A DNA stretch of 64,000 nucleotides, taken from contig CAKPGR010000003.1 in assembly GCA_934155005.1 (NCBI GenBank), positions 13,011 to 77,010 on the forward strand, read 5' to 3'. Every line of letters begins with the position of its first letter. Positions within the stretch are counted from its first letter, which is position 1. Made by a program: the position numbers and the translations under genes. This DNA comes from an uncultured Bacilli bacterium (GTDB lineage: Bacteria > Bacillota_I > Bacilli_A > RF39 > UBA660). The notes beneath the pieces were generated by a model. That model did not search any database, was not told where the DNA came from, and worked only from the letters and a program-made list of their open reading frames with translations. Shown in pieces: positions 6,384 through 41,435 of this stretch.

Positions 6384-6386
6384 CAT

Positions 6387-15399: not shown

Positions 15400-15438
15400 A
15401 ATCTCACCACTATATTATATGAAAAAATGTTAAGTAGT

Positions 15439-16512
15439 TTACTTAACATAATATTCATAATACTCTTCAAAAGTTAAATTCTTTTCAAATATCATTTTAG
15501 CAGCTTCAATTCCAACGTATCTATAATGCCATGACTCATATATATATCCTGTTATATTAACTTTATCCTTAGGATATCTTAAAATAAAACCATATTTATA
15601 AGCATTCTCTTTTAACCAAGTAAATTCCTTAGTTGTTTCAAAATTTCCAAGAGTTGTAGTAGGAGTAGTAACATCAAAAGCAAGACCTGTTTGATGTTCA
15701 GAATAACCAGGACGAGCTGAATAAGTATCAGCTTTATTATAACCATCAACAGAAGCATAATTTTCATATAATGAATTTTGTGTTTTAAAACTTCTGTAAG
15801 GTGATCTAATATATAGATTTAAATTTTTATTTTTAGCGTCTTTCCACATTTTTTTATAAGCGTCATATACAGTACTATTTAAATACTTACCACTAACTCC
15901 ATAAGTGGATTCTATTTCAACTAAATCACTAGGAATATAGTCATCATCTAACTTGTTATATTTATTAACTAGAATTAAAAAGCCCTTAGATAAATCAGTC
16001 TTTTTAACGTTAGTATAATAATTATAATCTCTACCACTATTAACCATTGTAATAATATTACTTACATCATCACTATCATAAGCTAAATATCTATCTAAAT
16101 TATCCATTTTAAAATATTTGCTTTTCATTAAAGAAATGGTTTTATCAGTATAAGTTATATTTTTATCAAAAAAGTTATTATTAACAACATAAATAATATC
16201 ATCTAAATTAAAATTATATACATTCATAAATTCAATATATTTATCTAAATTATCTTCCTTAAAATCTTTATTTTTTATCAGTTCAATATATTTTTTATTA
16301 TAATCATAATTTAATAATTTCTCTGGATCTTTTAAATTATTTATAATTTTAATATCACTATTAGAATAACCTACATTTTTAAATTTATCGTTTAAAGATA
16401 TAGGTTTATTAGAAATTAAAAAGATGATAATTAAAATAATTAATATAATAACTGGAATAATAAATACACTTTTCTTTAGTTTTCTTTTTTTCATTTTATC
16501 ACTTATCCTCAT
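15439..16512 (-). CDS. Peptidase M15B/VanY family (paralog 2) with extra N-terminal domain
   Basis: N-terminal TM; SPYRSFKTQ, YSEHQTGLAFDV, ESWHYRYVG; shares NLDRYLAY motif with paralog 3. Confidence 0.8.
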   Translation of the reverse strand: MRISDKMKKRKLKKSVFIIPVIILIILIIIFLISNKPISLNDKFKNVGYSNSDIKIINNLKDPEKLLNYDYNKKYIELIKNKDFKEDNLDKYIEFMNVYNFNLDDIIYVVNNNFFDKNITYTDKTISLMKSKYFKMDNLDRYLAYDSDDVSNIITMVNSGRDYNYYTNVKKTDLSKGFLILVNKYNKLDDDYIPSDLVEIESTYGVSGKYLNSTVYDAYKKMWKDAKNKNLNLYIRSPYRSFKTQNSLYENYASVDGYNKADTYSARPGYSEHQTGLAFDVTTPTTTLGNFETTKEFTWLKENAYKYGFILRYPKDKVNITGYIYESWHYRYVGIEAAKMIFEKNLTFEEYYEYYVK

Positions 16513-16636
16513 ATTAAATTATAACACGTATAATAAAAAATGTTAAATAAATATATTAAACAAAATAAAAAAATTTAGAAATTATGTCTATAATATTAAT
16601 AAAATCTAGAAGGTCACAAAAAAAGTTAATTATTTA

Positions 16637-17581
16637 TTAACTTTTTTCAATATAATATGCATAGTATTCATCGTAAGTGATATTTTCTTTATGTATTTTC
16701 AAAGCCATATCTTTTCCAACATATCTATAATGCCAAGGTTCATAATCATATCCAGTTATGTCCTCTTTTCCTTTTGGATATCTTAAAATAAAACCGTATT
16801 TATAAGCATTTTCTTTTAACCATTTACTTTCATTTGAATCATCAAAATTATCCATTGTACTATTATAAGTTACAATATCAAGCGCTAAACCTGTTTGATG
16901 TTCAGAATATCCAGGACGAGCTGCATATAAATCAGCCCATTTTTCACCATTTTTAGTAGCATATCTGTTCCATATACTATCTTGGTCTTCATAAGACCTA
17001 TAAGAAGCATTAACAATTAAATTAAGACCTTTTAATTTAGCTGCTTTATACATTTCTATAAAAGCATCAACAACTTCTTTATTCGCTTTATTATCAGCAA
17101 AAGCATAAGTTGTACCAATATTTATTATGTCAGTAGCTTCATAAGATTTATCTAAATGATAAAATTTATTTATTAACATTAAGTTTCCTAAACTTGTATC
17201 AGTTTCTTTAATAGCGTCTTCATCATACCATTCATAGTCTGCTCCTACATTAACAATACTTACAACATGTGACATTTTATCATTTTTATTTTCTTTATAA
17301 TAAGCCAAATATCTATCTAAATTTTTATATAAAAAGTATTTTTGTTTTACAAAAGAAACTAGTGATTTACTATATTTTTTTGTTAAAACGTCATCAATTT
17401 CTTTATCTTTAAGTTTAAGTATTATTTTTATTTCACTATCATCATAACCAATTTTACCTAATTTATATTCATAACTATTTATATATTTTATGTATTTAAA
17501 ACATCCAATACTTGCTATTATGATAAAAATAATAAGTCCAATTAAAATATAAAATGATTTTTTTAATCTTCTTTTTTTCAT
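16637..17581 (-). CDS. Peptidase M15B/VanY family (paralog 3) with extra N-terminal domain
   Basis: N-terminal TM; ASYRSYEDQ, YSEHQTGLALDI, EPWHYRYVG. Confidence 0.8.
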   Translation of the reverse strand: MKKRRLKKSFYILIGLIIFIIIASIGCFKYIKYINSYEYKLGKIGYDDSEIKIILKLKDKEIDDVLTKKYSKSLVSFVKQKYFLYKNLDRYLAYYKENKNDKMSHVVSIVNVGADYEWYDEDAIKETDTSLGNLMLINKFYHLDKSYEATDIINIGTTYAFADNKANKEVVDAFIEMYKAAKLKGLNLIVNASYRSYEDQDSIWNRYATKNGEKWADLYAARPGYSEHQTGLALDIVTYNSTMDNFDDSNESKWLKENAYKYGFILRYPKGKEDITGYDYEPWHYRYVGKDMALKIHKENITYDEYYAYYIEKS

Positions 17582-24288: not shown

Positions 24289-26429
24289 ATCAAGATATAA
24301 TTGTAGAAATAAGTAAAAATTTAAATTTAAAGGTTAGTCAAGTTGAAAAAACACTTAATTTACTAATGGAAGGAAATACAATTCCTTTTATAGCAAGATA
24401 TAGAAAAGAAGTAACAGGAGCATTAAGTGAAGATGAAATTAGAAGTATTAACGAAGTATACGAATATCAAGTTAATTTGTTAAAGAGAAAAGAAGATGTT
24501 ATAAGATTAATTGATGAGAAAGGACTACTTACAAAAGAGTTAGAAGATAAAATAATGTCTTGTTTTAATCTAGTTGAAGTAGAAGACTTATATAGACCAT
24601 ATAAAGAAAAGAAAAAGACCAAAGCAACCGATGCTATTAATAATGGACTAGAACCACTTGCTAAGATAATCATGTCTGGTAAAGAAAAAAACATAGAAGA
24701 AGTTGCTAAAAGATTTGTTAATGATAAAGTAAAAACTATTAGTGATGCTATAGTGGGGGCAACATATATTATTGCTGAATGGATTAGTGATAATGCTTAT
24801 TATAGAAAATGGATAAGAAATTATACATTTAGAAATGGCAAAATAGTTACCAAAGTAAAAAAAGATAATAATGATATAAATAAAGTTTATGAAATGTACT
24901 ATTCTTATGAAGAAGAAATAAAAAGAATAAAACATCATAGAGTTTTAGCAATTAATAGAGCAGAAAAAGAGAAAGTTATAACTGTAAATATAGATGTAAA
25001 TAAAGAAGACATATTTACATATTTAGAAAGTAAACTTGTTAAAGAAAAAAATGCTTCATATCAAATTATTGTGGATGCTATAAAAGATAGCTATAAAAGA
25101 TTAATATTTCCATCAATTGAAAGAGAAATTAGAAGTTATTTAACTGAAAAAGCTGTGGAAAAAGCTATCGAAAATTTTGGACAAAATTTAGAATCTTTAT
25201 TATTAACACCACCAATAAAAGAAAAGATAGTATTAGCTTTTGATCCAGGGTATGTAAATGGATGTAAAATAGCTGTAATTGATAAAACAGGTAAATATCT
25301 TGATTCTACGGTAATAAAACCATTTTTAAAAAATAAAACAGATTTAACAAAAGATAAAGAAGAAATTGTTAAATTAATAAAAAAATATAATGTTGATATT
25401 ATAGCAATTGGGAATGGGACAGCTTCTCGTGAATCAGAAAAATTTTGCTCAGAATTAATTAAAGAAAATAATTTAAATACAAAATATGTTATTGTATCAG
25501 AAGCAGGAGCCTCTATTTATAGTGCATCAGAACTTGCTATAAAAGAATTTCCAGACTTAGCTGTTGAAAAAAGAAGTGCTGTTAGTATTGGAAGAAGATT
25601 ACAAGATCCACTTTCAGAGCTTGTTAAAATACCTCCTGATGGAATAGGAGTTGGATTATATCAACATGATATAGCAGGTAAAAAATTATCAGAAAGTTTA
25701 GATTTTGTTGTTTCTAAGGTAGTAAATAGTGTAGGAGTTAATATTAATACAGCATCCCCTTCCATTTTAAAATATATATCTGGTATCACTAAAAAAAATA
25801 TTGACAAAATTATTTCATATAGAGAAGATGCTGGTGAAATAAAATCAAGAGATGAAATAAAAAAGAAAAAAATATTAAGTGATAAAGTATATGAACAAGC
25901 AATTGGTTTTTTAAGAATTACAAATGGGGATAACATCTTAGATCAAACAGCTATCCATCCAGAAAGATATGAAACAGTTATGGAATTTTTAAAACTTCTA
26001 GACTTAAATATCTCTCATATAGGAACAAAAGAATTAATAAATAAATTAGATAATATTGATTTAGAAGAATATACTAAAAAATTAAATATAGATATATATA
26101 CTTTAACAGATATTATAGAAGATTTAAAAAAACCAAATAGAGATCCACGTGATTTAATAGATGCTCCAATTTTGAAGAGTGATGTTTTAGAATTAAAAGA
26201 TTTAAAATTAGGAATGAAGTTACAAGGTACTGTTCGTAATGTAACACCTTTTGGAGCATTTATAGATATTGGACTTCATGATGATGGACTTGTTCATATA
26301 TCGAAAATGTCAAAACAATATATTAAAGATCCAACTGATGTAGTTAGTGTTGGTGATATAGTTGATTGCTATGTAATAGATATAAATCAAGAAAAAGAAA
26401 AGGTTTCTTTAAGTTTAATTGAAGAATAA
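24285..26429 (+). CDS. tex: Tex-family transcription accessory protein (HTH, YqgF, HhH, S1 domains)
   Basis: 714 aa; N-terminal ISKNLNLKVSQVEKTLNLLMEGNTIPFIARYRKE; C-terminal S1 domain GTVRNVTPFGAFIDIG; ATGA overlap with dinB. Confidence 0.85.
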   Translation: MNQDIIVEISKNLNLKVSQVEKTLNLLMEGNTIPFIARYRKEVTGALSEDEIRSINEVYEYQVNLLKRKEDVIRLIDEKGLLTKELEDKIMSCFNLVEVEDLYRPYKEKKKTKATDAINNGLEPLAKIIMSGKEKNIEEVAKRFVNDKVKTISDAIVGATYIIAEWISDNAYYRKWIRNYTFRNGKIVTKVKKDNNDINKVYEMYYSYEEEIKRIKHHRVLAINRAEKEKVITVNIDVNKEDIFTYLESKLVKEKNASYQIIVDAIKDSYKRLIFPSIEREIRSYLTEKAVEKAIENFGQNLESLLLTPPIKEKIVLAFDPGYVNGCKIAVIDKTGKYLDSTVIKPFLKNKTDLTKDKEEIVKLIKKYNVDIIAIGNGTASRESEKFCSELIKENNLNTKYVIVSEAGASIYSASELAIKEFPDLAVEKRSAVSIGRRLQDPLSELVKIPPDGIGVGLYQHDIAGKKLSESLDFVVSKVVNSVGVNINTASPSILKYISGITKKNIDKIISYREDAGEIKSRDEIKKKKILSDKVYEQAIGFLRITNGDNILDQTAIHPERYETVMEFLKLLDLNISHIGTKELINKLDNIDLEEYTKKLNIDIYTLTDIIEDLKKPNRDPRDLIDAPILKSDVLELKDLKLGMKLQGTVRNVTPFGAFIDIGLHDDGLVHISKMSKQYIKDPTDVVSVGDIVDCYVIDINQEKEKVSLSLIEE

Positions 26430-26446
26430 AAAATTGTTAAAAAAAT

Positions 26447-26470
26447 ACTAGGCTTTAATACCTAGTTTTT
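26447..26470 (+). terminator. Terminator after tex (short stem actagg/cctagt plus T-run)
   Basis: Inverted repeat followed by TTTTT. Confidence 0.45.
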
Positions 26471-26520
26471 ATTAGGATTATGATTAAATGTAAATAATTG
26501 TCAACAAAAATTAATAATGT

Positions 26521-26549
26521 TTGATAATTATAAATTTTGGTGTTATACT
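26521..26549 (+). promoter_or_regulatory. Candidate promoter of the T4SS-like island (TTGATA - 17 nt - TGTTATACT extended -10)
   Basis: -35 at 26521-26526, TG-extended -10 at 26541-26549, then GGTGGTG RBS. Confidence 0.45.
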
Positions 26550-26585
26550 AAAAATGTAATATAAAATCGTAAAGGTGGTGAAATA

Positions 26586-26759
26586 ATGAAAGAAGCTACA
26601 GGAGAAGCAAACATGACAGTAGTAACAATTATCTTAATTGCGGCAATTGTTGCAATCGCTACACCATTAATAACTAATATGATGAATAGCACAAAACAAA
26701 AAGCGGAATGCATGAGTAATGGTGGTGTTTGGGAAAATAACACATGTAAAAATTCATAA
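26586..26759 (+). CDS. 57-aa pilin-like protein (Flp-like size): MKEATG N-terminus, hydrophobic helix, C-terminal Cys-x12-Cys
   Basis: Not in the ORF track (below the cut-off). ATG 26586 with RBS AAAGGTGGTG. Sequence MKEATGEANMTVVTIILIAAIVAIATPLITNMMNSTKQKAECMSNGGVWENNTCKNS. Confidence 0.5.
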   Translation: MKEATGEANMTVVTIILIAAIVAIATPLITNMMNSTKQKAECMSNGGVWENNTCKNS

Positions 26760-26774
26760 AATGAGGTATAAAAT

Positions 26775-27200
26775 ATGAAAGAAGCGATAGGTAGTATTCC
26801 ATTATACAATTTTATAATTATATTTATAGTCATTACCTTTGGCTTTTTATCTGCTACACTTATGTACTACAAAGCTTTCAAGTTAAATAGTAAAATAGCT
26901 TATTCCTTAGAAAAATATGAAGGGTATAATGATTTATCTTCTAAGGAAATTAATAAAAATTTGGGAACATTAGGATATCGCGTTGGTAGTACTAATGATT
27001 GTCCTGTTAAACAAGGAAATAGAATAGGTACATCAGGAATTAATTATCCTATTTGTATTTATGAAATAACTAGAAAAGATAGTGCATATTTTAATTATGG
27101 GATAATTACATATATCTATTTAGATATTCCTCTTATAGGAGGTACCTTTAAAATCCCAGTATATACTGAATCTGAAAAGATTTTTAAATTTTCAAGTTAG
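26775..27200 (+). CDS. 141-aa pseudopilin-like protein (M-K-E-A-I-G N-terminus, TM helix, extracellular domain with Cys pair); paralog of the next gene
   Basis: MKEAIGSIPLYNFIIIFIVITFGF...; conserved LGTLGYRVGS...C-x20-C...YGIITYIYLDIPLIGG block shared with the 27213 gene. Confidence 0.55.
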   Translation: MKEAIGSIPLYNFIIIFIVITFGFLSATLMYYKAFKLNSKIAYSLEKYEGYNDLSSKEINKNLGTLGYRVGSTNDCPVKQGNRIGTSGINYPICIYEITRKDSAYFNYGIITYIYLDIPLIGGTFKIPVYTESEKIFKFSS

Positions 27201-27212
27201 AGTGGTGAATTT

Positions 27213-27671
27213 ATGAGAGAAGCAATAGGAACAACATATGTACTAAATTTTATTATTGTATTTTTTGTAATATTCATTGCTTTTTTTGTTGGTAGCATGG
27301 TATATACAAAAGCTTTTAAAGTAAAAAATAAAATAATAGATATAATTGAATATTATGATGGTGAGGTAGTAGATGGATCTAATAGTTTAAAATCAGGACC
27401 ACTTACTGATATTAATAATAAATTAGGATCAATAGGATATAGAATAGCTAATAACAATCAAAATAATTGTGATAATAATAGATTTACGGATAAAGGTGGT
27501 CAAATAGTTAATAAAGGTAATTCTAATTATAGATATTGTATATATAAATTTAAAGAAAATAGAGGAACATATTATGGAGTTGTAACATATATGTATTTTG
27601 AAGTGCCAATTATAGGTGCTAAATTAGAACTTCCAATATATGGTGAAACGAGAACATTTATTAAATTATAA
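27213..27671 (+). CDS. 152-aa pseudopilin-like protein (M-R-E-A-I-G N-terminus), paralog of the 26775 gene
   Basis: MREAIGTTYVLNFIIVFFVIFIAFF...LGSIGYRIAN...C...C...YGVVTYMYFEVPIIGA. Confidence 0.55.
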   Translation: MREAIGTTYVLNFIIVFFVIFIAFFVGSMVYTKAFKVKNKIIDIIEYYDGEVVDGSNSLKSGPLTDINNKLGSIGYRIANNNQNNCDNNRFTDKGGQIVNKGNSNYRYCIYKFKENRGTYYGVVTYMYFEVPIIGAKLELPIYGETRTFIKL

Positions 27672-27684
27672 AAGGGGTGATTAG

Positions 27685-28692
27685 ATGAACGTAATTATTT
27701 CTAATAGATATCAATCTGTTTTAGAACAACTAGACATTGATGTTATAAAAACATTGAATGGTGAATTTGATGTAGATGACATAATAAATCAATTTCAAAA
27801 TTTTTTCTTTCAAAGAATGATTTTAGATATAACAGCTATTAAAGGATATAAAGATATTAAAACACTACAAAAGTTGTCTATATCATTAGATATGGATAAA
27901 GTAATATTACTTTTAGATGATTCAGTTGATGATGGGTCAGGTGACTTTTTATCAAAATTAATATCAATGGGTATATACAACTTCACTAAAAATGTTGAAG
28001 GAATAATGTATTTATATAATAACCCTAATTCATATCGTGATGTAGCGCATATTCAACAACTTGATCAAACAAGTGGTGGACAAGTTGTTGTAGAACACTA
28101 TGAAAATGCAGCTATTCAAAAAGGTGTTAGAGTTATAGGTGTTAAAAACGTTACTAAACAAAGTGGTGCTACAACACTCATTTATATGATGAAAAAACAA
28201 TTAGAAAAACATTATAGTGTTGTTGCTATTGAAGTAGATAAAAATGATTTTAAATTTTTTAATGACAAAAATATGTATTCAACAACAAGTGTTGAAATAG
28301 GAAATTTAGTAGCTAAATATAATGATCAAGATGTGATATTAGTTGATGTAAATGATAGTCAATCAGCTGAAAATTTATGCCATGAAATGCTTTATTTAGT
28401 TGAACCATCAATGATTAAATTAAATAAACTTATGCTTACAAATAATAAAGTATTTAAAGATTTAAAGGGCAAAAAAATAATATTAAATCAAAGTATATTA
28501 AGTACTAAGGATGTATTAGAATTTGAATATGAATCCAATTCAAAGGTATTCTTTAATATGCCACCTTTAGATGAAAGAGAAAGAAGTATTCATATTTTAA
28601 ATAAATTTTTATTTATGATGGGATTCTCAAAACAACAAACTACAGAAGAAGAACAAAAAAAGTTTAGTATATTAGGTCTTTTTGGAAAATAG
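27685..28692 (+). CDS. TadZ/CpaE-like architecture: N-terminal pseudo-receiver-like domain plus C-terminal ParA/MinD-like domain with degenerate Walker A
   Basis: RVIGVKNVTKQSGATTLIYMM aligns to the deviant Walker A xIAVxSxKGGVGKTT but has lost the Gly-rich P-loop; DVILVDVND at the Walker-B-like position. Confidence 0.4.
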   Translation: MNVIISNRYQSVLEQLDIDVIKTLNGEFDVDDIINQFQNFFFQRMILDITAIKGYKDIKTLQKLSISLDMDKVILLLDDSVDDGSGDFLSKLISMGIYNFTKNVEGIMYLYNNPNSYRDVAHIQQLDQTSGGQVVVEHYENAAIQKGVRVIGVKNVTKQSGATTLIYMMKKQLEKHYSVVAIEVDKNDFKFFNDKNMYSTTSVEIGNLVAKYNDQDVILVDVNDSQSAENLCHEMLYLVEPSMIKLNKLMLTNNKVFKDLKGKKIILNQSILSTKDVLEFEYESNSKVFFNMPPLDERERSIHILNKFLFMMGFSKQQTTEEEQKKFSILGLFGK

Positions 28693-28721
28693 TTGACAAA
28701 ATAAGGAAAATAAAGTATATT
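28693..28721 (+). promoter_or_regulatory. Internal sigma-A promoter (TTGACA - 17 nt - TATATT) dedicated to the VirB2-like gene
   Basis: Consensus -35 at 28693-28698 and -10 at 28716-28721; RBS AGGAGGT upstream of ATG 28770. Confidence 0.55.
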
Positions 28722-28769
28722 ATTTATAGAAAGCAATAAAATTATTTATTGAAATAGGAGGTTTTGTTT

Positions 28770-29141
28770 ATGTTAAATATATTAACTGATTTAACTTGTG
28801 AAGGATTAACAATCCCAGGATTAATTGTAAACTTAGTTTATTATGCTATTTTAGCTATAAAAATATTTGTACCATTAGTTTTAATTGTTTTTGGTATGAT
28901 GGATTTAGCAAAAGCTGTTATGGCACAAGATGACAAAATAATGAAAGAATCACAAAAAAGATTAATTAGTAGAATTATTTATGCTGTATTAGTTTTCTTA
29001 ATTATTTCATTAGTTCAAATGGTATTTACTTTCTTAGGAAATGCTGATAAAGATAGTGAAACAGGACAAAGTGGTTCTATGAAATGTGTATCATGTTTAA
29101 TTAATGGTAAAACAGGTGCAGCAAATAGCTGTGGTAGATAA
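28770..29141 (+). CDS. Small two-TM membrane protein, candidate T4SS pilin (VirB2/TrbC-like topology) with Cys-containing C-terminal tail
   Basis: Two hydrophobic helices separated by a conserved loop GMMDLAKAVMAQDDKIMKESQKRLISRII; own promoter and own terminator (monocistronic); ATG 28770 (the track ORF starts at an upstream TTG). Confidence 0.45.
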   Translation: MLNILTDLTCEGLTIPGLIVNLVYYAILAIKIFVPLVLIVFGMMDLAKAVMAQDDKIMKESQKRLISRIIYAVLVFLIISLVQMVFTFLGNADKDSETGQSGSMKCVSCLINGKTGAANSCGR

Positions 29142-29168
29142 GACATTAAATTGTCTTATTTTTTTTAT
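29140..29168 (+). terminator. Rho-independent terminator right after the VirB2-like gene
   Basis: aagaca/tgtctt stem, loop ttaaat, followed by ATTTTTTTT. Confidence 0.6.
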
Positions 29169-29230
29169 AAAAAAGCCATTTTAATTGAAAATAAAAGACT
29201 TTATATGTTATAATTGTTGTAGGTGATAAT

Positions 29231-30145
29231 ATGAAAAATATTAAAAAACTATCAAAAATTTTATTTTTATTCATAATATGCTTTGGATTTGGAATTAACG
29301 CAAAGGCTGCAACAAAAGCTTGCTTAATTGATAGTAATGGAAAATTATCTTGGGATGATATAAATGTTTTAAAATCCAATACAGCTGGTTATTTTGGTAC
29401 TGCTAATAAAACAAAAGCTAATTGTAAAGGATATTTAGAATTGACTTGTGTATATAAAAAAGAAGGAAGTAATAACGTAAAATGGACGTTTACTCAAAAT
29501 TCAAAAGGTGTTAAGAAATTAATTAACCAGGATGGAAAAGAAGCAGAAGCTTCTAAAAAAAATCAATTGACTTTTCCAGGTGATGATTGTCGTACGAAAG
29601 TATACTATGTTAAGGAAGACTGTGGAAAAGGAATTTTTAAAGATGGTTCGTCAAAAGGATGGACTTGGTTAGATATTAGAAAATGTGAAAGCAATCAATA
29701 CAACACTTATACTCTTGTAACGGAAGAAAGTAAGAGTGATACTGATGCAACAGTTATTAACAATGGTCAACATAAGGTGGATACTAAAGAGGATATTATT
29801 AATAAAGATAATTCTTCAAATTCAACTCCATCGACTGCTGATCCGATAACTTCTTGTGATTCTTTGCCTAAGACAATGGAATTGTTAAAGAAGATATATA
29901 ATTTTCTAAAATATATGGTCCCAGTTATAATAATAGGACTTGGAATGTTAGATTTTATAAAAGCTATAACAAGTGATGATGAAAAAGTATTTAAAGAAGC
30001 TTGGAATAAATTGATGAAGAGAATAATTGTAGGAGTTATAATTCTTATTTTGCCAGTAATATTAGAATTTTTAATAAATATAAGTGGAGTAATTAATGAA
30101 GAAGGATTAGACAAAAATAATTTATTCTGTATATTTACAAAATAA
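29231..30145 (+). CDS. Secreted/membrane protein: signal peptide, Cys-rich extracellular domain (8 Cys), C-terminal two-helix domain paralogous to the VirB2-like gene
   Basis: Signal peptide MKNIKKLSKILFLFIICFGFGINAKA; C-terminal GMLDFIKAITSDDEKVFKEAWNKLMKRIIVGVIILILPV aligns with GMMDLAKAVMAQDDKIMKESQKRLISRIIYAVLVFLI of the 28770 gene. Confidence 0.55.
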   Translation: MKNIKKLSKILFLFIICFGFGINAKAATKACLIDSNGKLSWDDINVLKSNTAGYFGTANKTKANCKGYLELTCVYKKEGSNNVKWTFTQNSKGVKKLINQDGKEAEASKKNQLTFPGDDCRTKVYYVKEDCGKGIFKDGSSKGWTWLDIRKCESNQYNTYTLVTEESKSDTDATVINNGQHKVDTKEDIINKDNSSNSTPSTADPITSCDSLPKTMELLKKIYNFLKYMVPVIIIGLGMLDFIKAITSDDEKVFKEAWNKLMKRIIVGVIILILPVILEFLINISGVINEEGLDKNNLFCIFTK

Positions 30146-30224
30146 AAGCAATTAATATTTTATATTGCTTTTTTTTATGTTATAATATAAGGGTAATATT
30201 GTAATTAAAAATGGAGGTAATAAT

Positions 30225-32300
30225 ATGAATGCATCTTTCTTTATGGACGGGGTCAGAAATTTATTTGGTTTAATCGATTCTGGAATATATAATTTAATAT
30301 CAATAGTTTACGAATTAATCATTAAATTATCTAATATAACTTTTTTCTCAGAAGCTAATATAAGAGAATTTAGGGATAGAATTTATGTATTCTTAGCTGT
30401 TTTTATGTTATTTAAAGTTACAATTTCATTAATTACATATTTAGTTGATCCCGATTCTATGGGGGATAAAACTAATGGAATAGGCAATGTTGCTAAAAAT
30501 GTTGTTATTACCTTATTTTTAATTATTATTGTACCTTTTGGATTTGATTTATTATATGAAGCTCAAAATGCTATTATAAGTGATAATTTAATTCCAAGAG
30601 TTATTCTTGGTACTAAGGGTGATGGAAGTAATGTTAATGAATCTTATACAATGGATCCTAATGCTTGTAAAGATGGTGATACATTCGTTACAACAACCAT
30701 TAATAGTGATGGCGATTTAATGGCTTATTTGGCTTTTAGACCATTTTATCAAACATATAAAGATGCTGATATTTCAAGCATTAAAAATGATTATTGTTCT
30801 GCTAATAGTGTTTCAAACTTATTAACTTCGGATATTTATAATGCTGAATCAGGAACTCATAATAGTGGTCAATATTTAATTAATTATCAAATACTTTTAT
30901 CAACAGCATGTGGTATTTTAGTCTTTTTATTACTTTTGAACTTTGCATTTGATATAGCTGCAAGGACAATCAAATTAGGATTCTTAGAGATTATTGCTCC
31001 TATTCCAATTTTGTCTTATATAGATCCTAAATCAGCAAAAGATGGACCATTTAAAAAATGGTTATCAGAAGTAGGAAAAACATGGGCTAGTTTATTTATT
31101 CGTTTAGCCATTGTTTATTTTGCAATATATGCAATAAAATTAATTCCATCCGCACTTGAAGAAGCCAAAGATGAAAATGGTATATGGGTTTCATTATTCT
31201 TACTTATCGGTATATTAATATTTGCTAAAAATGCTATACCACTTATTGAAAACTTATTTGGAATTAAATTCGATCATACAGTTCAATTAAATCCATTTAA
31301 GAAAATAAGTGAACAAGCATTAGGAGGAACAGTAGCCGCTGGACTTGGAGCAGCAGCACTTGGAAGTGGTGCTAGTGGTATTTCACAAGCTGCATCAAAT
31401 GGGTATAATTTTGCAAGAAATAAGCAAAATTTAAAGAAAGCTATAGATTTAGAAAAAGACGAAGGAAAAAAAGCAAAATTGCAACGACAATATGATTCAA
31501 TGAATGCTAGAAAATTTGTTGGAACAACATTTGGTGGACTTGCTGGTGGAGCTTTAAATGGTGCTAAGTCTGGTTATGCAACTGGAGCCAAAGGAAGTGG
31601 AAATGTATTTAAAAATGTTAAAGATGATTTAAAGAAGGGAAATACAAGTAGAAATAATAGACAAAATATTAGTGATTACAATAGAGAAGCAAGATGGCAA
31701 TTTGATAAAACAAGTAAAGAATTGAATGAGGAAAGAGAAGCTATTTTAAATGATAGTAGTTTAACATCTGAGCAAAGAAAAGAAAAATTAAATAATATAG
31801 CTGAAAAAATTATTAAAAATAAAAATAATTATGATAATGCACGTTATGGTTGGGTTGAAAGAAATATTACAGAAAATCTTGACAAAAATTCAGGAGTTAA
31901 AAATGATTTTGGTGGTTATGGATATTACAACAAAAAGATTGAAAAATTAAATAAGGATATTGAAAATAATGATCAAAGAGAAGCAGCATTTAGGACATCT
32001 TTATCACAATTCTGTGTTTCAAATTCAATTGATCAACTTGCAATTGAAGAATTACATAAGAAATTGGTTGATGCTAGAACCGAAAGTAACGCTACTATAA
32101 AAGCAAATATGATAGCACAAGCTTATACAGAAATAAGTACTAAGCATAATATTGATAGCGATAAGCTTAAGAATTCCTATGCTAGTGTTGAAACAACATT
32201 AAATAATATTGATACAGTTGATGAACAAACTAAACAATTTAAAGCAGAGAGAGCTAATTATAAAGAAATGATGGCAGCTCGTGAAGATGTAAAAAAATAA
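30225..32300 (+). CDS. VirB6-like polytopic membrane protein (TcpH/ConG/Tn916 Orf15-like) with long C-terminal soluble coiled region
   Basis: 691 aa; at least 6 TM helices in the first 350 aa, then a charged helical C-terminal half; position upstream of the VirB3-VirB4 pair. Confidence 0.55.
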   Translation: MNASFFMDGVRNLFGLIDSGIYNLISIVYELIIKLSNITFFSEANIREFRDRIYVFLAVFMLFKVTISLITYLVDPDSMGDKTNGIGNVAKNVVITLFLIIIVPFGFDLLYEAQNAIISDNLIPRVILGTKGDGSNVNESYTMDPNACKDGDTFVTTTINSDGDLMAYLAFRPFYQTYKDADISSIKNDYCSANSVSNLLTSDIYNAESGTHNSGQYLINYQILLSTACGILVFLLLLNFAFDIAARTIKLGFLEIIAPIPILSYIDPKSAKDGPFKKWLSEVGKTWASLFIRLAIVYFAIYAIKLIPSALEEAKDENGIWVSLFLLIGILIFAKNAIPLIENLFGIKFDHTVQLNPFKKISEQALGGTVAAGLGAAALGSGASGISQAASNGYNFARNKQNLKKAIDLEKDEGKKAKLQRQYDSMNARKFVGTTFGGLAGGALNGAKSGYATGAKGSGNVFKNVKDDLKKGNTSRNNRQNISDYNREARWQFDKTSKELNEEREAILNDSSLTSEQRKEKLNNIAEKIIKNKNNYDNARYGWVERNITENLDKNSGVKNDFGGYGYYNKKIEKLNKDIENNDQREAAFRTSLSQFCVSNSIDQLAIEELHKKLVDARTESNATIKANMIAQAYTEISTKHNIDSDKLKNSYASVETTLNNIDTVDEQTKQFKAERANYKEMMAAREDVKK

Positions 32301-32316
32301 AAAGGGGATGAAATAA

Positions 32317-32637
32317 ATGAATAATACATATTTAATACCAGCTAATAGTAAAAAATCATTAATGATATTTGGATTATTTTATCCATTTGATTTAATGCTA
32401 TTTGGTACAGGACTAGGTATAACATTACTTTTACTTATGGTACTTCCACTTGAAAGTTTAACAATGTCTATTATTGCCATAGCTCCTGGGTTAGTTACTG
32501 GATTACTTGTTTTTCCAGTCCCTAACTACCATAATCTATTAACTGTTTTAATGGAAATTTGGATATTTTTTACAACAAGGCAAAGATATGTATGGAAAGG
32601 TTGGTGTGTGAATAATGGCGAAAGCGATAAAAAGTAA
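32317..32637 (+). CDS. VirB3-like small two-TM protein (Tn916 Orf17/ConD/PrgI analogue)
   Basis: 106 aa, two TM helices; immediately upstream of and overlapping the VirB4 N-terminal fragment. Confidence 0.5.
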   Translation: MNNTYLIPANSKKSLMIFGLFYPFDLMLFGTGLGITLLLLMVLPLESLTMSIIAIAPGLVTGLLVFPVPNYHNLLTVLMEIWIFFTTRQRYVWKGWCVNNGESDKK

Positions 32638-33163
32638 ATATACAAATGAAAGTTTTGTACCAGTTAAAAGTATTACGAATGGTATGATAATTTTAGATAA
32701 TAACGAAAAAGTTTGTGGTATTAAAATAATGCCAAGAAATATTTTTATAGCAGATTATGATACACAAAATGCTATAATAGCTAATTTAAAAAATGTTTAT
32801 AATATGATAGATTATGAATTCTGGATTATTGCAGCTGATAGACCAGTTGATATCAATGTTTTCTTATCACAACTTCAACTTTTATATAATTCAGTTAGTG
32901 ATCAAGCTAAAAGAAAACTAATAATGGAAGATATAAATAAAGCTAATTTATTTATGAATAACAATATTGTTGATACTGAATATTTCTTACTATTTAAAGA
33001 AAAAAATCAAGATACAATACAAAAGAGAATTAGACAACTTATTAATGCTTTTGCAAGTGCTGGATTAAATTCTCATCAAGTGTCTAATGAAGATTTAAGA
33101 ATTATATTAGATAACTTCTTAAATGGTGGACAAACTACTACATTTGGGACGGTGATTGGATAA
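32615..33163 (+). CDS. VirB4-family ATPase, N-terminal domain fragment (split gene, part 1)
   Basis: 182 aa; FVPVKSITNGMIILDNNEKVCGIKIMPRNIF resembles the N-terminal domain of Gram-positive VirB4 proteins (Tn916 Orf16/TcpF/PrgJ); stop overlaps the next start as TAATG. Confidence 0.6.
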   Translation: MAKAIKSKYTNESFVPVKSITNGMIILDNNEKVCGIKIMPRNIFIADYDTQNAIIANLKNVYNMIDYEFWIIAADRPVDINVFLSQLQLLYNSVSDQAKRKLIMEDINKANLFMNNNIVDTEYFLLFKEKNQDTIQKRIRQLINAFASAGLNSHQVSNEDLRIILDNFLNGGQTTTFGTVIG

Positions 33164-34947
33164 TGGATATAAAAGCTCAAATAGCGCCTAAGGGACTAGA
33201 ATTTAAACCAAGTAGTTTTATTATTAGTGATAAATATGCAACTATTTTAACAGCTATATCTTATCCAAGATATATAAATCCAGGATATTTATCATCTTTA
33301 ACTAGTATGTCAGGTATCAAAGTTGTTATAAAACATATACCACTTCCATTTAGTTCAATTAGTAAAATGTTAAACAAAGAAATAGCTGACTTAAAGCAAA
33401 GATATCAAGAAGAACATGATAGAACACTTCAAGAAAGAATTAGACAAGATTATGAATCACTTGAACAATTTATTCAACAATTAGCTGCTTCACAATCAAA
33501 AATTTATGACTTTCAAATGCATATCATGATTACGGCTAATAGTGAAGAAGAATTAAATAGTAAAAAATTTCAAGTAAAAAATTATTTAGAAGCGATGGAA
33601 ATTAGAGCTTTACCACTTAGATTTGAACAAGAAAAAGTTTTAAAATCTATATTACCAATATATGAAAAACAAGATATTGAAGATAGAATAGGTACACCAA
33701 TTCCATCACCAACACTAGCAGCAATGTATCCTTTTATATTTGATAGTATCAAAGATCCAGGACTTTCAACTTTACTTGGAGTTGATTTCTCTGGTGGAGT
33801 TATTTTATTTAACCAATTCTTATATCAAATAAAAAAAGAACACAATCGTAATAATGCTAACATGATTATTTTAGGTACATCTGGTAGTGGTAAATCAACA
33901 GCAGCTAAAATATTACTTAGAACACATATTAGAAACAATTGTCAACTAGTTTTAATTGACCCAGAAGGTGAATTAGAAGAAATGACAAAACGTTTTGGTG
34001 GAGATTTTATTGATTTAGGTAAAGGTGGAGAATTCGGAATGATAAATCCACTTGAAGTTGTAATCGATGCTGATGAAGATGAAATAGAAAATGGTTTAGG
34101 TTATACTGTTTTAACTAGAACTCTTCAAAGTGTAAAAGCTTTTATGAAATATTATGATCCATCAATTGAAGAAGATGTACTTAATATGTTTAGTGAAGTT
34201 TTACAAGAAACATATAGAAGATTTGGAATTAGCTTCGAAGCTGATTTTACTAAGTTTACTTCAAGAGATTATCCAACTTTTAAAGATGTTTATGCAACAA
34301 TTCGTGGTCGTCTTACATCAATGACAGAAAAAACACAAGAAAGAGATGTAATGGAAAGACTAGAACTTAAAATAAGACCAATAGTAAAAGAATTAAAATA
34401 TTACTTTGATGGCCATACAACTATAACAAGTTCTAGTGATTTTATAACATTTAATATTAGAGAAATTATGAATGCTGATGAAAATATTCGTAATGCTTTA
34501 TTCTTTAATATATTAAAATATGCATGGGGATTAACTTTAAATAAAAATGTTAATACTATTTTACAAGTAGATGAAGCTCATGTATTATTGTCAGGAAATA
34601 ATACTCTTGGGGCTGACTTTTTAGCGCAAATTCAAAGACGTTCTAGAAAATATAATACTGGAACAATTATTATAACTCAACAACCAAGTGATTTCTGTGA
34701 TCCACATGTTATAACACAAGGTAAAGCTATATTTGATAATGCATCATACTATTTAGTTATGGGTCTTAAAAAACAAGCTGTTGAAGACTTAGCTAAATTA
34801 GTTGATTTAAATGATAATGAAAAAGAGAATATTAAAGGATTTAGTCAAGGAGAAGCATTACTTGTTTGTGGTTCTAGAAGAATGCGTATTAATATTATTG
34901 CTACTGAGCAAGAATTAGATTCATTTGGAAGTGGCGGAGGATTTTAA
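33163..34947 (+). CDS. VirB4-family ATPase, central and C-terminal ATPase part (split gene, part 2)
   Basis: 594 aa; Walker A ILGTSGSGKST (about nt 33880), Walker B ILQVDEAHVLL; about 20 aa sampled across this ORF follow the VirB4 pattern. Confidence 0.8.
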   Translation: MDIKAQIAPKGLEFKPSSFIISDKYATILTAISYPRYINPGYLSSLTSMSGIKVVIKHIPLPFSSISKMLNKEIADLKQRYQEEHDRTLQERIRQDYESLEQFIQQLAASQSKIYDFQMHIMITANSEEELNSKKFQVKNYLEAMEIRALPLRFEQEKVLKSILPIYEKQDIEDRIGTPIPSPTLAAMYPFIFDSIKDPGLSTLLGVDFSGGVILFNQFLYQIKKEHNRNNANMIILGTSGSGKSTAAKILLRTHIRNNCQLVLIDPEGELEEMTKRFGGDFIDLGKGGEFGMINPLEVVIDADEDEIENGLGYTVLTRTLQSVKAFMKYYDPSIEEDVLNMFSEVLQETYRRFGISFEADFTKFTSRDYPTFKDVYATIRGRLTSMTEKTQERDVMERLELKIRPIVKELKYYFDGHTTITSSSDFITFNIREIMNADENIRNALFFNILKYAWGLTLNKNVNTILQVDEAHVLLSGNNTLGADFLAQIQRRSRKYNTGTIIITQQPSDFCDPHVITQGKAIFDNASYYLVMGLKKQAVEDLAKLVDLNDNEKENIKGFSQGEALLVCGSRRMRINIIATEQELDSFGSGGGF

Positions 34948-37237: not shown

Positions 37238-38755
37238 ATGAAAAGATTTTATAAAATAATAGATAAAATAAATATATCATTATTTGTTTTTCTTTTCATA
37301 TTCTCTTTTTCATATTTTCTACCTAAAAATATAGTCATTTCAAAAAAAATATATTTAGATAAAAATTCATTCATAAGCCAAATGTCAGAAGCTGCCGTAC
37401 AAGATATGAAAGAAACAGGTGTATTTGCTAGTGTTACAATTGGACAAGCAGCAGTTGAGTCTGGTTGGGGAAAAGATGAAATTTCAACAACTTATAATAA
37501 CTATTTCGGTATGAAAGCTGGAGGAGATATATATGTAAATGGTATTAAAACAAAATGTGACTCTAGTAATAGAAAAGTTATTGGTAAATCTAATAATCAA
37601 AATTCCTTTTGGGGTGGATATGCTGTTTGTTTATCTGCATCAGAAGGTGGGGGATCATGGTTTAGAGTTTATGATAGTGTTTTAAATTCAATTAAAGATC
37701 ATTCTAGAAATTTTTGGTGTAATACTAGTGGTAGATATATAAAAAATGGTGTTTTTGCATCACCTAATCCAGAAGTTCAACTTTATACTATTGCTAAGTC
37801 AGGGTATGCTGTTGATGGTAGTGGTAATATTACAACTATCGGTGGTCTTAGATATGACCAACATATATATCAAAAAATAATAATTCCAAATAATTTAACT
37901 AAATATGATAATGTGTATCAAAGTGGAGTTAAACCGGCATATGCAGAGACTTGTACAGATGCCGTTTATACAGGATCAACTCCTACTATTGATACATCAT
38001 CTTCATCTAATTTAAATGGAGTTAGTGATTTTAAAACAACATATAGTGGAGATGTAAAAGAAGGATATATTTATAAAACACAAAAAAATAATGCCTTAAA
38101 AGTAACAGAAAAAACAGTTACTGAAAAAATAGATGAAAATATAAATTCCATTATAAAAAGTATATTTACAACGACAGGTGAATATTCTGATGGAAAAATA
38201 GGCGCTAGTGCATATACGGCAAATGTTACATATGTAAATGGTAGTTTTAAAAATAAAGTTGTTTATTATAATCAAAATGATTATAAAAGTTATCCATATG
38301 GTAGCTATGGTACTATAGCATCTCATGGTTGTGGTACAACATCAATGGCAATTGTTATTTCTAGTTTTTTAGGAAGAGAAGTAAGTCCTGTTGAAACTAC
38401 TAATTGGGCATGTTCAAATGGTTATTGTACTTCTAGTGGATCTTCTCACTCTGTAATTCCAGGACTTGCAGCACAATATGGATTAAATAGTACTAATGAA
38501 ATATCTTCAAGTTCTAATTTACAACCAGTTGTCGATGCCCTAGCAAGTGGTAATTCGTTAGTTGTTGTTTTAGCTAAGTCAGGAGAATTTACAAATAGTG
38601 GTCACTTCCTTGTTTTGACAGGAGTTGATGCAAGTGGTAATATTTCAGTAGCAGATCCTGCAAGTAGAAAGAAAACAGAAAAAACATATACATTAGATTT
38701 CTTAATAAATCCAACACAAGGACATATCGTTAAATTCTGGATTATAAGTGGGTGA
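37238..38755 (+). CDS. Secreted bifunctional peptidoglycan hydrolase: N-terminal GH73 glucosaminidase-like domain plus C-terminal papain-like (CHAP/C39-like) domain
   Basis: Signal/TM N-terminus; GVFASVTIGQAAVESGWGKDE...YNNYFGMKAGG (GH73 signature); C-terminal ASHGCGTTSMAIV...SGHFLVLTGVD (Cys-His dyad). Confidence 0.7.
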   Translation: MKRFYKIIDKINISLFVFLFIFSFSYFLPKNIVISKKIYLDKNSFISQMSEAAVQDMKETGVFASVTIGQAAVESGWGKDEISTTYNNYFGMKAGGDIYVNGIKTKCDSSNRKVIGKSNNQNSFWGGYAVCLSASEGGGSWFRVYDSVLNSIKDHSRNFWCNTSGRYIKNGVFASPNPEVQLYTIAKSGYAVDGSGNITTIGGLRYDQHIYQKIIIPNNLTKYDNVYQSGVKPAYAETCTDAVYTGSTPTIDTSSSSNLNGVSDFKTTYSGDVKEGYIYKTQKNNALKVTEKTVTEKIDENINSIIKSIFTTTGEYSDGKIGASAYTANVTYVNGSFKNKVVYYNQNDYKSYPYGSYGTIASHGCGTTSMAIVISSFLGREVSPVETTNWACSNGYCTSSGSSHSVIPGLAAQYGLNSTNEISSSSNLQPVVDALASGNSLVVVLAKSGEFTNSGHFLVLTGVDASGNISVADPASRKKTEKTYTLDFLINPTQGHIVKFWIISG

Positions 38756-39455: not shown

Positions 39456-41435
39456 ATGAAATTAAAATTAAAAGCAGAAGCAAGAGATTGGATTATTTTC
39501 GTTATATATGCCGTTTTTCTATTTTTCTTGATTTGTGTTGCTGTTGTAAATTTAGGAACGTTTGCAACTGAATCAAGATTTTCAGGATTTAATCCTTTCT
39601 TAGCATTTCAAAGAGATTATATTGGACCAACAATGGTATTTTACCTTGGTGCTTTAATAGCTTCATTTGTTAGTGTTCAAAATCATTTTTTTGAGAGAGA
39701 AAAAGGAATTGGATTTAGTGTAGGAGCAAAAAAGGAAAAAGGATACTCAAGATGGGCTACTGATAAAGAATTTAAAAAGGATCTAGAAAAAATATTACCC
39801 GATCAAGAAAAATGTGAAAAAGGTGGTATTCCTTTAATTAATAGTGGAAAAGAAATTTGGGTTGATCCAAGTGGATATCATAATATGATTATAGGATCAA
39901 CAGGATCAGGTAAATCACAAGCTATATCAAAGCCATTTATTAGAGTTATGGCCAAGGCAGGAGAATCAATGATTGTAACCGATCCAAAAGGAGAACTTTA
40001 CGAAGATACTTCACTTGAATTAAAAGCAAGAGGATATAACATAATTGTTTTAAACTTCCGTGATCCTCAAAAAGGTAATTGTTGGAATCCATTTTCCTTA
40101 CCATATAAATTATACAAAGAAGGAAACATTGATAAGGCAACTGAATTACTAGAAGATTTAGCAAAAAATATTCTATATGATGAATCAAGCAAAGGTCAAG
40201 ACCCATTTTGGGAAAATACATCAGCTGATTATTTTACAGGATTATCACTTGCTTTATTTGATGATGCTAAGGAAGATGAAATAAATATTAATAGTATAAA
40301 TTTAATGAGTACAGTTGGTGAAGATAAAATAGGTGGTACAACTTATATAAAAGAATATTTTAGTGATAAAGATCAATCTAGCGGTGCTTATGTAAACGTT
40401 TCAAGTACTTTGATGGCTCCTAGTGATACAAAAGGAAGTATTTTATCAGTATTTAAACAAAAAATAAAATTATTCTCATCACGTGAAAATTTGTCTGAAA
40501 TGTTATCACATAGTGATTTTGATATTGAAGATATTGGACGTGAAAAAACAGCTGTTTTTATTGTTATTCAAGATGAAAAAAAGACATATCATCCATTAGT
40601 TACAATTTTCTTAAAACAATGTTATGAAACATTAGTTAGAGTAGCTCAAGAAAATGGCAGTAAACTTAAATATAGAACTAATTTCTTACTAGATGAATTT
40701 GCTAATATGCCTCCTTTAACAGATGTTGATGCAATGGTTTCAGCAGCGCGTTCTAGAAATATTAAATTATCATTTATCATACAAAACTTCTCACAATTGA
40801 ATGATGTTTATGGTAAAGAAAAGGCAGAAACAATAAGAGGTAACTGTGGTAATACAATTTATATTTTATCAACAGAACTTTCAGCATTAGAAGAAATTAG
40901 TAAGATGTGTGGAGATGTAAAATCTAAAAAAGATGATAAGACTGATTCGAGGCCATTAGTTACTGTTTCTGATCTTCAAAAACTAAAAGAAGAAGAAGCT
41001 ATAATTTTAAGATCAAGAATGAATCCTTATAAGACAAAATTAAAATTTGATTATAAAATTGATTGGGGTAAAAAATACGAAAAAGCTAAATACCCAAATA
41101 GAGAAAAGATTAAAGTAACTACTTTTGATTTAAAAGGATATGTTAATAAAAAAAGAGATAAGAAAATAAATGACATGTTAGGTGGAAATTCTTCTAAGAT
41201 TCCTTCTATGCCAAATATATTCGGACCTAAACCAGGTGCACCTGATTTAGATAGCATAGTAAAAAGGATAGATGCTAAAATAGCTGAAATGGAAGCTGAA
41301 GAAAGAAAAGAACAAGAAAAAAGACAAGCTAAAAAACAAGTCACACCTGAACAAAAAGAACAACCTAAAAAAATTAATCTTGAAGAAGTTACTGATGATC
41401 AATTCTTTGATGATTTCTTTAATGATGAAGAATAG
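39456..41435 (+). CDS. Type IV coupling protein, VirD4/TraG/TcpA-like ATPase with N-terminal TM helices and acidic/aromatic C-terminal tail
   Basis: Walker A MIIGSTGSGKSQ (about nt 39900), Walker B FLLDEFANMPP; two N-terminal TM helices; C-terminal EEVTDDQFFDDFFNDEE. Confidence 0.8.
   Translation: MKLKLKAEARDWIIFVIYAVFLFFLICVAVVNLGTFATESRFSGFNPFLAFQRDYIGPTMVFYLGALIASFVSVQNHFFEREKGIGFSVGAKKEKGYSRWATDKEFKKDLEKILPDQEKCEKGGIPLINSGKEIWVDPSGYHNMIIGSTGSGKSQAISKPFIRVMAKAGESMIVTDPKGELYEDTSLELKARGYNIIVLNFRDPQKGNCWNPFSLPYKLYKEGNIDKATELLEDLAKNILYDESSKGQDPFWENTSADYFTGLSLALFDDAKEDEININSINLMSTVGEDKIGGTTYIKEYFSDKDQSSGAYVNVSSTLMAPSDTKGSILSVFKQKIKLFSSRENLSEMLSHSDFDIEDIGREKTAVFIVIQDEKKTYHPLVTIFLKQCYETLVRVAQENGSKLKYRTNFLLDEFANMPPLTDVDAMVSAARSRNIKLSFIIQNFSQLNDVYGKEKAETIRGNCGNTIYILSTELSALEEISKMCGDVKSKKDDKTDSRPLVTVSDLQKLKEEEAIILRSRMNPYKTKLKFDYKIDWGKKYEKAKYPNREKIKVTTFDLKGYVNKKRDKKINDMLGGNSSKIPSMPNIFGPKPGAPDLDSIVKRIDAKIAEMEAEERKEQEKRQAKKQVTPEQKEQPKKINLEEVTDDQFFDDFFNDEE

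Follow-up and report, generated by a model that had tools for sequence, protein, structure and literature searches.

Two adjacent genes on the plus strand of a 64,000-nucleotide stretch of DNA from an uncultured Bacilli bacterium (GTDB lineage Bacteria; Bacillota_I; Bacilli_A; RF39; UBA660; assembly GCA_934155005.1, contig CAKPGR010000003.1, positions 13,011 to 77,010 of the forward strand; the whole stretch is called the window below) encode divergent relatives of the PF18895 (T4SS_pilin) family, and they are followed directly by genes for a type IV secretion system (T4SS). With slightly more confidence than doubt, we read the two products, A and B, as two forms of one membrane-hairpin module serving this chromosomal, monoderm-type T4SS, in which A would be the abundant, VirB2-like subunit and B would co-assemble in minor amounts and carry an exchangeable binding domain. 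The pair and the part of B that corresponds to A are located as follows.

28770-29141, plus strand: gene A, a pilin-like protein of 123 amino acids counted from its ATG (open reading frame, homologues)
29231-30145, plus strand: gene B, a 304-amino-acid paralogue of gene A (open reading frame)
29855-30142, plus strand: pilin-like module of gene B, amino acids 209-304, flanked by C209 and C300 (PF18895, hhalign)

A first-pass annotation of this DNA had proposed that A and the C-terminus of B have a two-helix core in common, and alignment bears this out. In a BLASTP comparison the two proteins are 38% identical over 39 amino acids (E = 2e-9), and hhalign of small families built around each protein gives 99.1% (E = 9e-19) over 85 columns, placing residues 21-107 of A with residues 217-301 of B. 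In both proteins, structural model, hydropathy and charge agree on two hydrophobic helices separated by a short charged loop. The AlphaFold2 (AF2) model of A is a helical hairpin (residues 17-51 and 55-95, mean pLDDT 64.6), and that of B is confident nowhere except in a corresponding hairpin near its C-terminus (residues 214-247 and 251-285, pLDDT 70-78), its N-terminal domain remaining below 50.

The family to which this module belongs is large. Word-indexed searches found just 21 relatives for A and 5 for B, whereas an exhaustive search with an A profile returned 7651 cluster representatives at E<=1e-3, of which 2943 reach E<=1e-10. These proteins are 86-583 amino acids long and carry the module at the C-terminus, at the N-terminus or in the center. 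A few of the best 150 relatives have the module joined to an NlpC/P60, CHAP, esterase or S9 peptidase domain, showing that it displays outside-facing domains. Residues 217-281 of B match PF18895 at E = 0.002 with 18.6 bits, against a gathering score of 26.6 bits, and A itself has no meaningful Pfam match, with none to PF18895 at E<=0.1; of the 150 relatives ranked highest by the A profile, however, 88 reach E<=0.01 against PF18895 (best 3.6e-8). Relatives that carry a precomputed PF18895 annotation include P0025, P0101, P0175, P0182 and P0209. The NCBIfam model NF045849 (Mbov_0395 pilin-like) gives a similar picture, with 14.9 bits for B (E = 0.016; cut-off 40 bits), no match for A and matches at E<=0.01 for 12 of the 150 relatives. 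Membership in the TrbC/VirB2 family, which the first-pass annotation had suggested checking by hidden Markov model (HMM), did not hold up: neither A nor B matches PF04956 at E<=0.1, and this family is absent from the 25 most frequent of the 70 families matched by the 150 relatives of A. The earlier label of A as pilin-like thus stands at the level of the family, through PF18895 and the synteny with T4SS genes, and not at that of PF04956. By sequence, the pair forms a divergent and so far unannotated branch of PF18895 and does not belong to PF04956; PF18895 already has a name in Pfam. Both proteins also lack a type IV/Flp prepilin leader (short, charged and ending in Gly before a hydrophobic helix), and searches of PHROGs (A, B and the four genes upstream) and of 72,556 plasmids (tblastn with A and with the core of B) gave no match.

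To place the pair in a wider context we assembled loci with an A-family scan of one genome per species, yielding 52 loci, and added six metagenome loci; open reading frames were called in each and labelled by jackhmmer with the proteins of the window cluster. The 52 loci come from metagenome-assembled genomes (MAGs) of guts and rumens, labelled as uncultured Bacilli, Erysipelotrichaceae, 'Clostridium sp. CAG:1000', 'CAG:524' or Mycoplasmatota. These loci allow the expression signals of gene A to be judged by conservation.

28693-28698 and 28716-28721, plus strand: sigma-70-type promoter of gene A, -35 TTGACA and -10 TATATT with a 17-nt spacer (score 11/12)
28756-28761, plus strand: ribosome-binding site AGGAGG, 8 nt upstream of the gene A ATG (read from the sequence)
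29136-29166, plus strand: intrinsic terminator of gene A, a 10-bp hairpin (29136-29161) that includes the stop codon, followed by T8 (fold)

The start of gene A is consistent with the same 'ML' opening in homologues and with GAGGAGG or GGAGG at the equivalent position in related loci. Its promoter, which had been proposed at 28693-28721 and whose TTGACA abuts the stop codon of the 335-amino-acid gene upstream, is the top-scoring sigma-70-like site across 26-33 kb (11/12). In DNA this AT-rich a single match is not evidence on its own, since the same scan found 54 sites where shuffled sequences predict 60, and so no enrichment. What establishes the promoter is its recurrence upstream of gene A orthologues that lack a signal peptide, to which the promoter and terminator counts given here refer: 38 of 40 distinct intergenic regions contain an exact TTGACA at 17-18 nt spacing, compared with 20 of 224 other intergenic regions. 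A score of at least 11/12 is reached by 85% of these regions; shuffled sequences reach it in 0.4% of cases and other intergenic regions in 25%, part of which comes from other pilin paralogues.

The terminator can be judged in the same way. Its hairpin (-10.3 kcal/mol, z = -3.6) was overlooked by a consensus scan because the stem has just 2 G-C pairs. Defining a terminator as a hairpin of at least 5 pairs and -3 kcal/mol or better that abuts a T-run, we found one 3' of 38 of the 40 orthologues, with stem sequences that are unrelated between lineages, compared with 0-8% after the 335-amino-acid gene, the VirB6-like gene, the 106-amino-acid gene, both VirB4 parts, the hydrolases and the prepilin-like genes. 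Intermediate rates of 18% and 45% occur after long B-type genes and after signal-peptide-bearing A paralogues, respectively. As a conserved feature, the monocistronic promoter/terminator unit predicted for gene A is therefore well supported, and the earlier suggestion that A is a highly expressed structural subunit is strengthened by it, as far as expression can be predicted from such signals. An Rfam scan of 26300-30400 gave no match at E<=1. Open reading frames also occur on the minus strand at 28590-28736, 29015-29146, 29146-29379 and 29767-30114; homology support is entirely for the plus-strand frames.

Gene A is organized as an acidic N-terminal tail with Cys10, a first helix at about residues 17-51, a basic loop at 52-68 and a C-terminal tail with C106-x-x-C109 and C121. 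It has no signal peptide, its residues 1-16 being acidic and free of Lys and Arg, a pattern that holds across the A family, where the N-terminal tail is acidic with a mean of 0.14 Lys/Arg and the loop between the helices always has 5. Under the positive-inside rule, this charge pattern would place the loop in the cytoplasm and both ends outside, so that the N-terminal tail would cross the membrane without a signal peptide.

The cysteines of this tail had been interpreted as half of a domain swap, with the Cys-containing segment at the C-terminus of A and at the N-terminus of B. This arrangement is ruled out by the family. C10, C106, C109 and C121 of A are nearly invariant among its 150 relatives, and BLASTP finds no similarity between the Cys tail of A and the N-terminal domain of B, so the three tail cysteines are a conserved part of the module and unrelated to that domain. 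B-type proteins instead keep a two-Cys form of the module, in which C209 and C300 of B correspond to C10 and C106 of A (hhalign places C300 on C106). Across 314 distinct family proteins, the pattern of one Cys in the N-terminal flank and a C-x-x-C...C arrangement in the C-terminal flank occurs in 200, a pattern of one and one in 41, with the positions of C109 and C121 lost together, and no Cys in either flank in 2. Because these losses occur in pairs, they point to a disulfide staple between the N- and C-terminal flanks; the co-loss suggests, as its simplest reading, disulfides C10-C106 and C109-C121, the first of which would tie the two flanks together outside the membrane. Signal-peptide-bearing paralogues in related loci have a conserved Cys 2-4 residues past the predicted Sec cleavage site, indicating that the N-terminal Cys belongs to the mature protein.

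Gene B adds an N-terminal extension to this module and differs from gene A in how it begins.

29231-29308, plus strand: signal peptide of gene B, amino acids 1-26 (Sec-type, MKNIKK...INAKA/A)
29314-29826, plus strand: replaceable cassette in gene B, mature N-terminal domain, amino acids ~29-199 (blastn)
29185-29214, plus strand: promoter-like site of gene B, TTGAAA, 18 nt, TG-n-TATAAT (motif scan)
29200-29214 and 30172-30186: 15-nt direct repeat TTT(A/T)TATGTTATAAT with an extended -10, upstream of gene B and of the VirB6-like gene
30144-30176, plus strand: hairpin and T-run after gene B, a weaker terminator (-8.9 kcal/mol, z = -2.5)

The proposed N-terminal signal peptide and Cys-rich domain were both recovered in gene B, which consists, in order, of a Sec-type signal peptide, a domain of about 130 amino acids with six Cys, a linker rich in Ser, Thr, Asn and Asp, and the module it has in common with A. 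This N-terminal domain is variable. Three metagenome contigs (L004, L005 and L006) have the housekeeping flanks of the window and are about 98% identical to it over 26400-33200, save for two segments. The first of these, 29314-29826, covers the mature N-terminal domain of gene B up to the linker and has no blastn alignment in any of the three. The same contrast appears between species: among 25 distinct B-type proteins encoded directly upstream of VirB6-like genes, 296 of 300 pairs of C-terminal modules are mutually detectable, whereas only 20 of 300 pairs of N-terminal domains are, falling into 11 clusters. The N-terminal domain of gene B is a replaceable cassette, hypervariable across species in contrast to the conserved pilin module, as would be expected for an exposed, target-binding part. 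The idea that B is an adhesin fused to a pilin gains support from this strain-level replacement and hypervariability.

The second segment that differs among the contigs, 31328-32294, is the C-terminal third of the VirB6-like gene; it has no alignment in L004 and L006, and L005 keeps the version of the window. It may be a second exchangeable surface part. The promoter-like site of gene B is not generally conserved, as only 3 of 30 B-type upstream regions reach 11/12. An extended -10 block, TGTTATAAT (15 nt), precedes gene B and the VirB6-like gene alike, and both copies of the 15-nt repeat lie directly 3' of a terminator-like hairpin.

The genes around the pair combine two secretion-like sets, prepilin-like genes upstream and T4SS genes downstream.

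26586-26759, 26775-27200 and 27213-27671, plus strand: three prepilin-like genes of 57, 141 and 152 amino acids, with a leader M(K/R)EA(I/T)G and a hydrophobic stretch
27685-28692, plus strand: conserved 335-amino-acid gene (order conserved in ~50 loci)
30225-32300, plus strand: VirB6-like gene (NF045848/NF045889; MMCAP2_0566 and Mbov_0396 of Mycoplasma integrative and conjugative elements, ICEs)
32317-32637, plus strand: 106-amino-acid membrane protein in the VirB3 position
32615-33163, plus strand: VirB4 N-terminal part, 182 amino acids (NF045975, Mbov_0397; Pfam TraC-like)
33163-34947, plus strand: VirB4 ATPase part, 594 amino acids
34970-36592, plus strand: NlpC/P60 hydrolase (Pfam)
37238-38755, plus strand: glucosaminidase with C39-like domain (Pfam)
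39456-41435, plus strand: VirD4 (T4SS-DNA_transf, E = 2e-57)

The order of pilin-like gene, VirB6-like gene, small membrane protein and VirB4 recurs in about 37 species-level loci. The split of VirB4 into two open reading frames is also kept in about 37 related loci, indicating that it is not a pseudogene, and the larger part shares 27-29% identity with VirB4 from 1701 Gram-positive plasmids. Of the 65 window open reading frames of at least 90 amino acids, 57 were scanned and yielded no relaxase or integrase domain, and the cluster is flanked by housekeeping genes that are also present in related strains. By gene content, then, the A/B cluster is chromosomal and not the module of a conjugative element (ICE or plasmid).

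By their M(K/R)EA(I/T)G leader, the three upstream genes look like Flp/TadE prepilins, and no prepilin peptidase was seen alongside them. In most related loci an RcpC/CpaB-like gene, a T2SSE ATPase and two genes of TadB/C size precede these three genes and the 335-amino-acid gene, whose product has no match in the PDB. In the window the CpaB-like, T2SSE-ATPase and TadB/C genes are missing, and Tex lies directly upstream of the prepilin-like genes. Several loci have larger arrays: L014 (6742-11683), L027 (6385-11621) and similar loci encode 4-6 pilin-like paralogues, several with Sec signal peptides and some with long N-terminal domains, and the gene for a conserved transmembrane protein of about 365 amino acids is inserted ahead of the copy without signal peptide. 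A related pairing occurs on a Mycoplasmatota plasmid from a cold seep (CP074574.1, L059), where a VirB4 homologue adjoins SAF/CpaB, CpaF and TadB/C-like genes in a Tad-like set with a canonical Flp pilin (G/SPSLEY); a 112-amino-acid, two-helix open reading frame at 3640-3978 of this locus looks pilin-like and has no match to the A-family HMM. The pairing of T4SS and Tad modules recurs in this lineage. Elsewhere in the window, positions 4838-14432 hold a type VII secretion-like region with a 1525-amino-acid FtsK/SpoIIIE (EssC-like) protein, a DUF4176 protein, WXG-sized open reading frames (98 and 104 amino acids) and an 817-amino-acid transglutaminase-like protein, and 14725-17581 on the minus strand holds three consecutive VanY-type D-Ala-D-Ala carboxypeptidase paralogues of 224, 357 and 314 amino acids.

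How A and B might work with this T4SS can be sketched from their expression signals, charge and cysteine patterns, and from analogy with VirB2. From its own transcription unit, with a near-consensus promoter and an intrinsic terminator, A would be made in large excess over the machine genes. It would insert without a signal peptide, N-out/C-out with the basic loop in the cytoplasm, and be stored in the membrane as a stapled hairpin whose external flanks are held by C10-C106 and C109-C121, the pairs suggested by the paired losses. Functionally, such a staple would parallel the head-to-tail cyclisation known from T-pilin and TrbC. As with VirB2, the VirB6-like platform and the VirB4 ATPase may then draw on this membrane pool, and the product could be a pilus or a short wall-spanning conduit, for which the NlpC/P60, glucosaminidase and GH25 enzymes would open the peptidoglycan. 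B may co-assemble at low stoichiometry, for example as the first subunit in and hence at the tip, where its exchangeable N-terminal domain would set what the structure binds. The gene order of the window, which matches that of Mbov_0395, Mbov_0396 and Mbov_0397, supports this reading.

Several points weigh against it. Both A and B fall below the PF18895 gathering score and neither matches PF04956. No similarity to any solved pilin was found by sequence or fold: the A-family profile against all PDB sequences gave nothing but a chance GPCR (G-protein-coupled receptor) match at E = 7.3, and comparing the A model with PDB folds returned generic helical hairpins with a best E of 2.7, the hairpin fold itself being generic. 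The disulfides are proposed from co-loss, and no monoderm bacterial T4SS is known to make a pilus (PMC12857230). A further difficulty comes from a subgroup of related loci (L041-L058) in which a single A-like gene follows the 335-amino-acid gene and closes a Tad-like operon; an LtaS-like sulfatase gene comes next, and neither VirB4 nor VirB6 is encoded within 10 kb. This A-like gene matches PF18895 at E = 0.0018 and keeps the conserved promoter and terminator. A PF18895-type module can therefore exist without an adjacent T4SS, and its link to the prepilin-like genes, which the first-pass annotation had not noted, is no looser than its link to the T4SS.

The strongest competitor, which we consider a real though distinctly less probable possibility, is that A and B are pilin-like parts of the T4SS translocon that do not polymerise, lining or stabilizing the channel at the interface of membrane and wall, with B anchoring an accessory wall-facing domain. 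Family and synteny evidence speak for such a role exactly as they do for a pilin, VirB2 is required even in T4SSs without a pilus and no Gram-positive pilus is known (PMC12857230), and the fusions to NlpC/P60 or CHAP domains resemble membrane-anchored enzymes more than fiber subunits. Against it, a dedicated strong promoter and a terminator conserved in 95% of loci imply a stoichiometry far above that of the machine genes, which is more polymer-like, and the arrays of 2-6 paralogues in related loci resemble the pilin arrays of Patescibacteria. The L041-L058 subgroup raises a different possibility, that A-type proteins are an accessory or second fiber subunit of a Tad/Flp-like machine and mere neighbors of the T4SS. 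An A-type gene or array does come directly after the prepilin-like genes and the 335-amino-acid gene in every locus, and in that subgroup it closes an operon of CpaB, T2SSE-ATPase, TadB/C and Flp-like genes with its promoter and terminator conserved and with no T4SS gene nearby. This explanation nevertheless seems unlikely to us, because PF18895 and the Mycoplasma ICE pilin-like family are associated with T4SSs and have no known Tad role, the window and L004-L006 have no Tad ATPase or platform genes at the locus yet keep A, B and the T4SS, and neither A nor B has the M(K/R)EAxG leader common to the three upstream genes.

A third alternative, that A is a small membrane-active protein (a holin, a bacteriocin or immunity protein, or the VirB3 equivalent, for instance) unrelated to pilins and present in the cluster only by position, is very improbable. 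The protein is small, with two hydrophobic helices and a Cys-containing tail, and a promoter and terminator of its own would also suit a toxin/immunity cassette; in addition, a C39-like peptidase domain is encoded at 37238-38755 and many A homologues have Gly-Gly near residue 11-12. These features are outweighed by the fixed position of A in the cluster across about 50 species, its clear homology to PF18895-positive proteins and the lack of a PHROGs match. A double-glycine leader cut by the C39-like domain can be ruled out, as A of the window has Glu-Gly, not Gly-Gly, and the Cys upstream of this site is conserved in the mature paralogues; A as VirB3 is likewise ruled out, as the 106-amino-acid gene already holds the VirB3 position beside VirB4.

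A bolder and rather doubtful proposal is that the uncultured gut Bacilli with reduced genomes in which this locus occurs use a chromosomal, relaxase-less hybrid of Tad/Flp-like and monoderm T4SS machinery to make a disulfide-stapled, VirB2-like fiber, with strain-specific, exchangeable binding cassettes on B as its tip subunit. In the stronger version of this proposal, a Tad-type machine would assemble the VirB2-like subunit in the subgroup with no T4SS gene nearby. Were the hybrid real, Firmicutes would possess an equivalent of the essential apparatus of T4SS, pilin array and type IV pilus that epibiotic Patescibacteria have, and a VirB2-type pilus would be known for the first time from a classical Gram-positive lineage.

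Gram-positive T4SS classes have been stated to be without virB2 homologues (PMC12102498), and a 2025 review describes VirB2 and VirB5 homologues as absent from Gram-positive T4SSs save in Patescibacteria, which it regards as unique among monoderms in their potential for conjugative pili (PMC12857230). Set against these statements, it is notable that the window and about 50 related loci place PF18895-type pilin genes in bona fide Bacilli beside MPF-FATA-like VirB4, VirB6 and VirD4. The loci also have the expression architecture of a major subunit, a Cys pattern suggesting that N- and C-termini are stapled, and a paralogue that perhaps sets target specificity; their distinguishing traits are a major copy without signal peptide, the four-Cys pattern, the conserved monocistronic unit, the cassette-bearing paralogue and the Tad-like neighbor. 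If filaments are made, this would be a second, phylogenetically independent setting for monoderm T4SS pili, and would bear on whether Patescibacteria gained their pilins together with a monoderm T4SS. The reach of these statements is set by a family that is already in Pfam, by organisms that are uncultured and by functions that are all proposed from sequence.

The closest parallel is found in Patescibacteria, where arrays of PF18895 VirB2-like pilins adjoin a relaxase-less, monoderm-type T4SS (PMC12102498; PMC12857230). The homologous family, the small two-helix proteins, the tandem and sequence-divergent paralogues beside VirB6, VirB3 and VirB4 in related loci, the chromosomal T4SS with no relaxase nearby and the type-IV-pilus-like module alongside are all common to the two. 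Unlike in Patescibacteria, the hosts are MAGs of uncultured gut Bacilli or of an Erysipelotrichaceae-like or Mycoplasmatota-like kind, the window proteins lie below the Pfam threshold, and the main copy has no signal peptide.

Mycoplasma ICEs have the same order of pilin-like gene, gene for a large transmembrane protein and VirB4 (Mbov_0395/MMCAP2_0565, Mbov_0396, Mbov_0397), and the existence of an NCBI 'pilin-like' family for them indicates that curators had noticed related Mollicutes proteins. The window differs in that its pilin-like, VirB6-like and VirB4 matches lie far below the NCBIfam cut-offs, in that no relaxase, DDE transposase or integrase was found in the cluster, which has housekeeping flanks, and in that its organism, unlike the Mycoplasma hosts, has peptidoglycan enzymes.

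TrbC/VirB2 pilins have a long signal peptide that is removed to leave a mature protein of about 70-100 amino acids, often cyclised or N-acetylated, with head-to-tail cyclisation occurring in T-pilin and TrbC. Like these proteins (T-pilin, RP4 TrbC, F TraA), A would form a hairpin of two helices joined by a basic loop, its two ends predicted to lie outside, is encoded with VirB6, VirB4 and VirD4 and is likely highly expressed, and the N-to-C disulfide staple we infer for it would mimic their cyclisation. Unlike them, A has no long leader and no PF04956 or solved-pilin match, and belongs to a monoderm cell, with no VirB5, B7, B9 or B10; B and the paralogues of other loci carry Sec signal peptides of the ordinary kind. 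For B, the nearest functional analogy is to VirB5-type tip adhesins and minor pilins. B has no homology to VirB5 and is instead a pilin module fused to an N-terminal domain of its own, but like those proteins it would be of low abundance and bind a target, is encoded beside the major subunit and VirB6, and carries a variable surface part.

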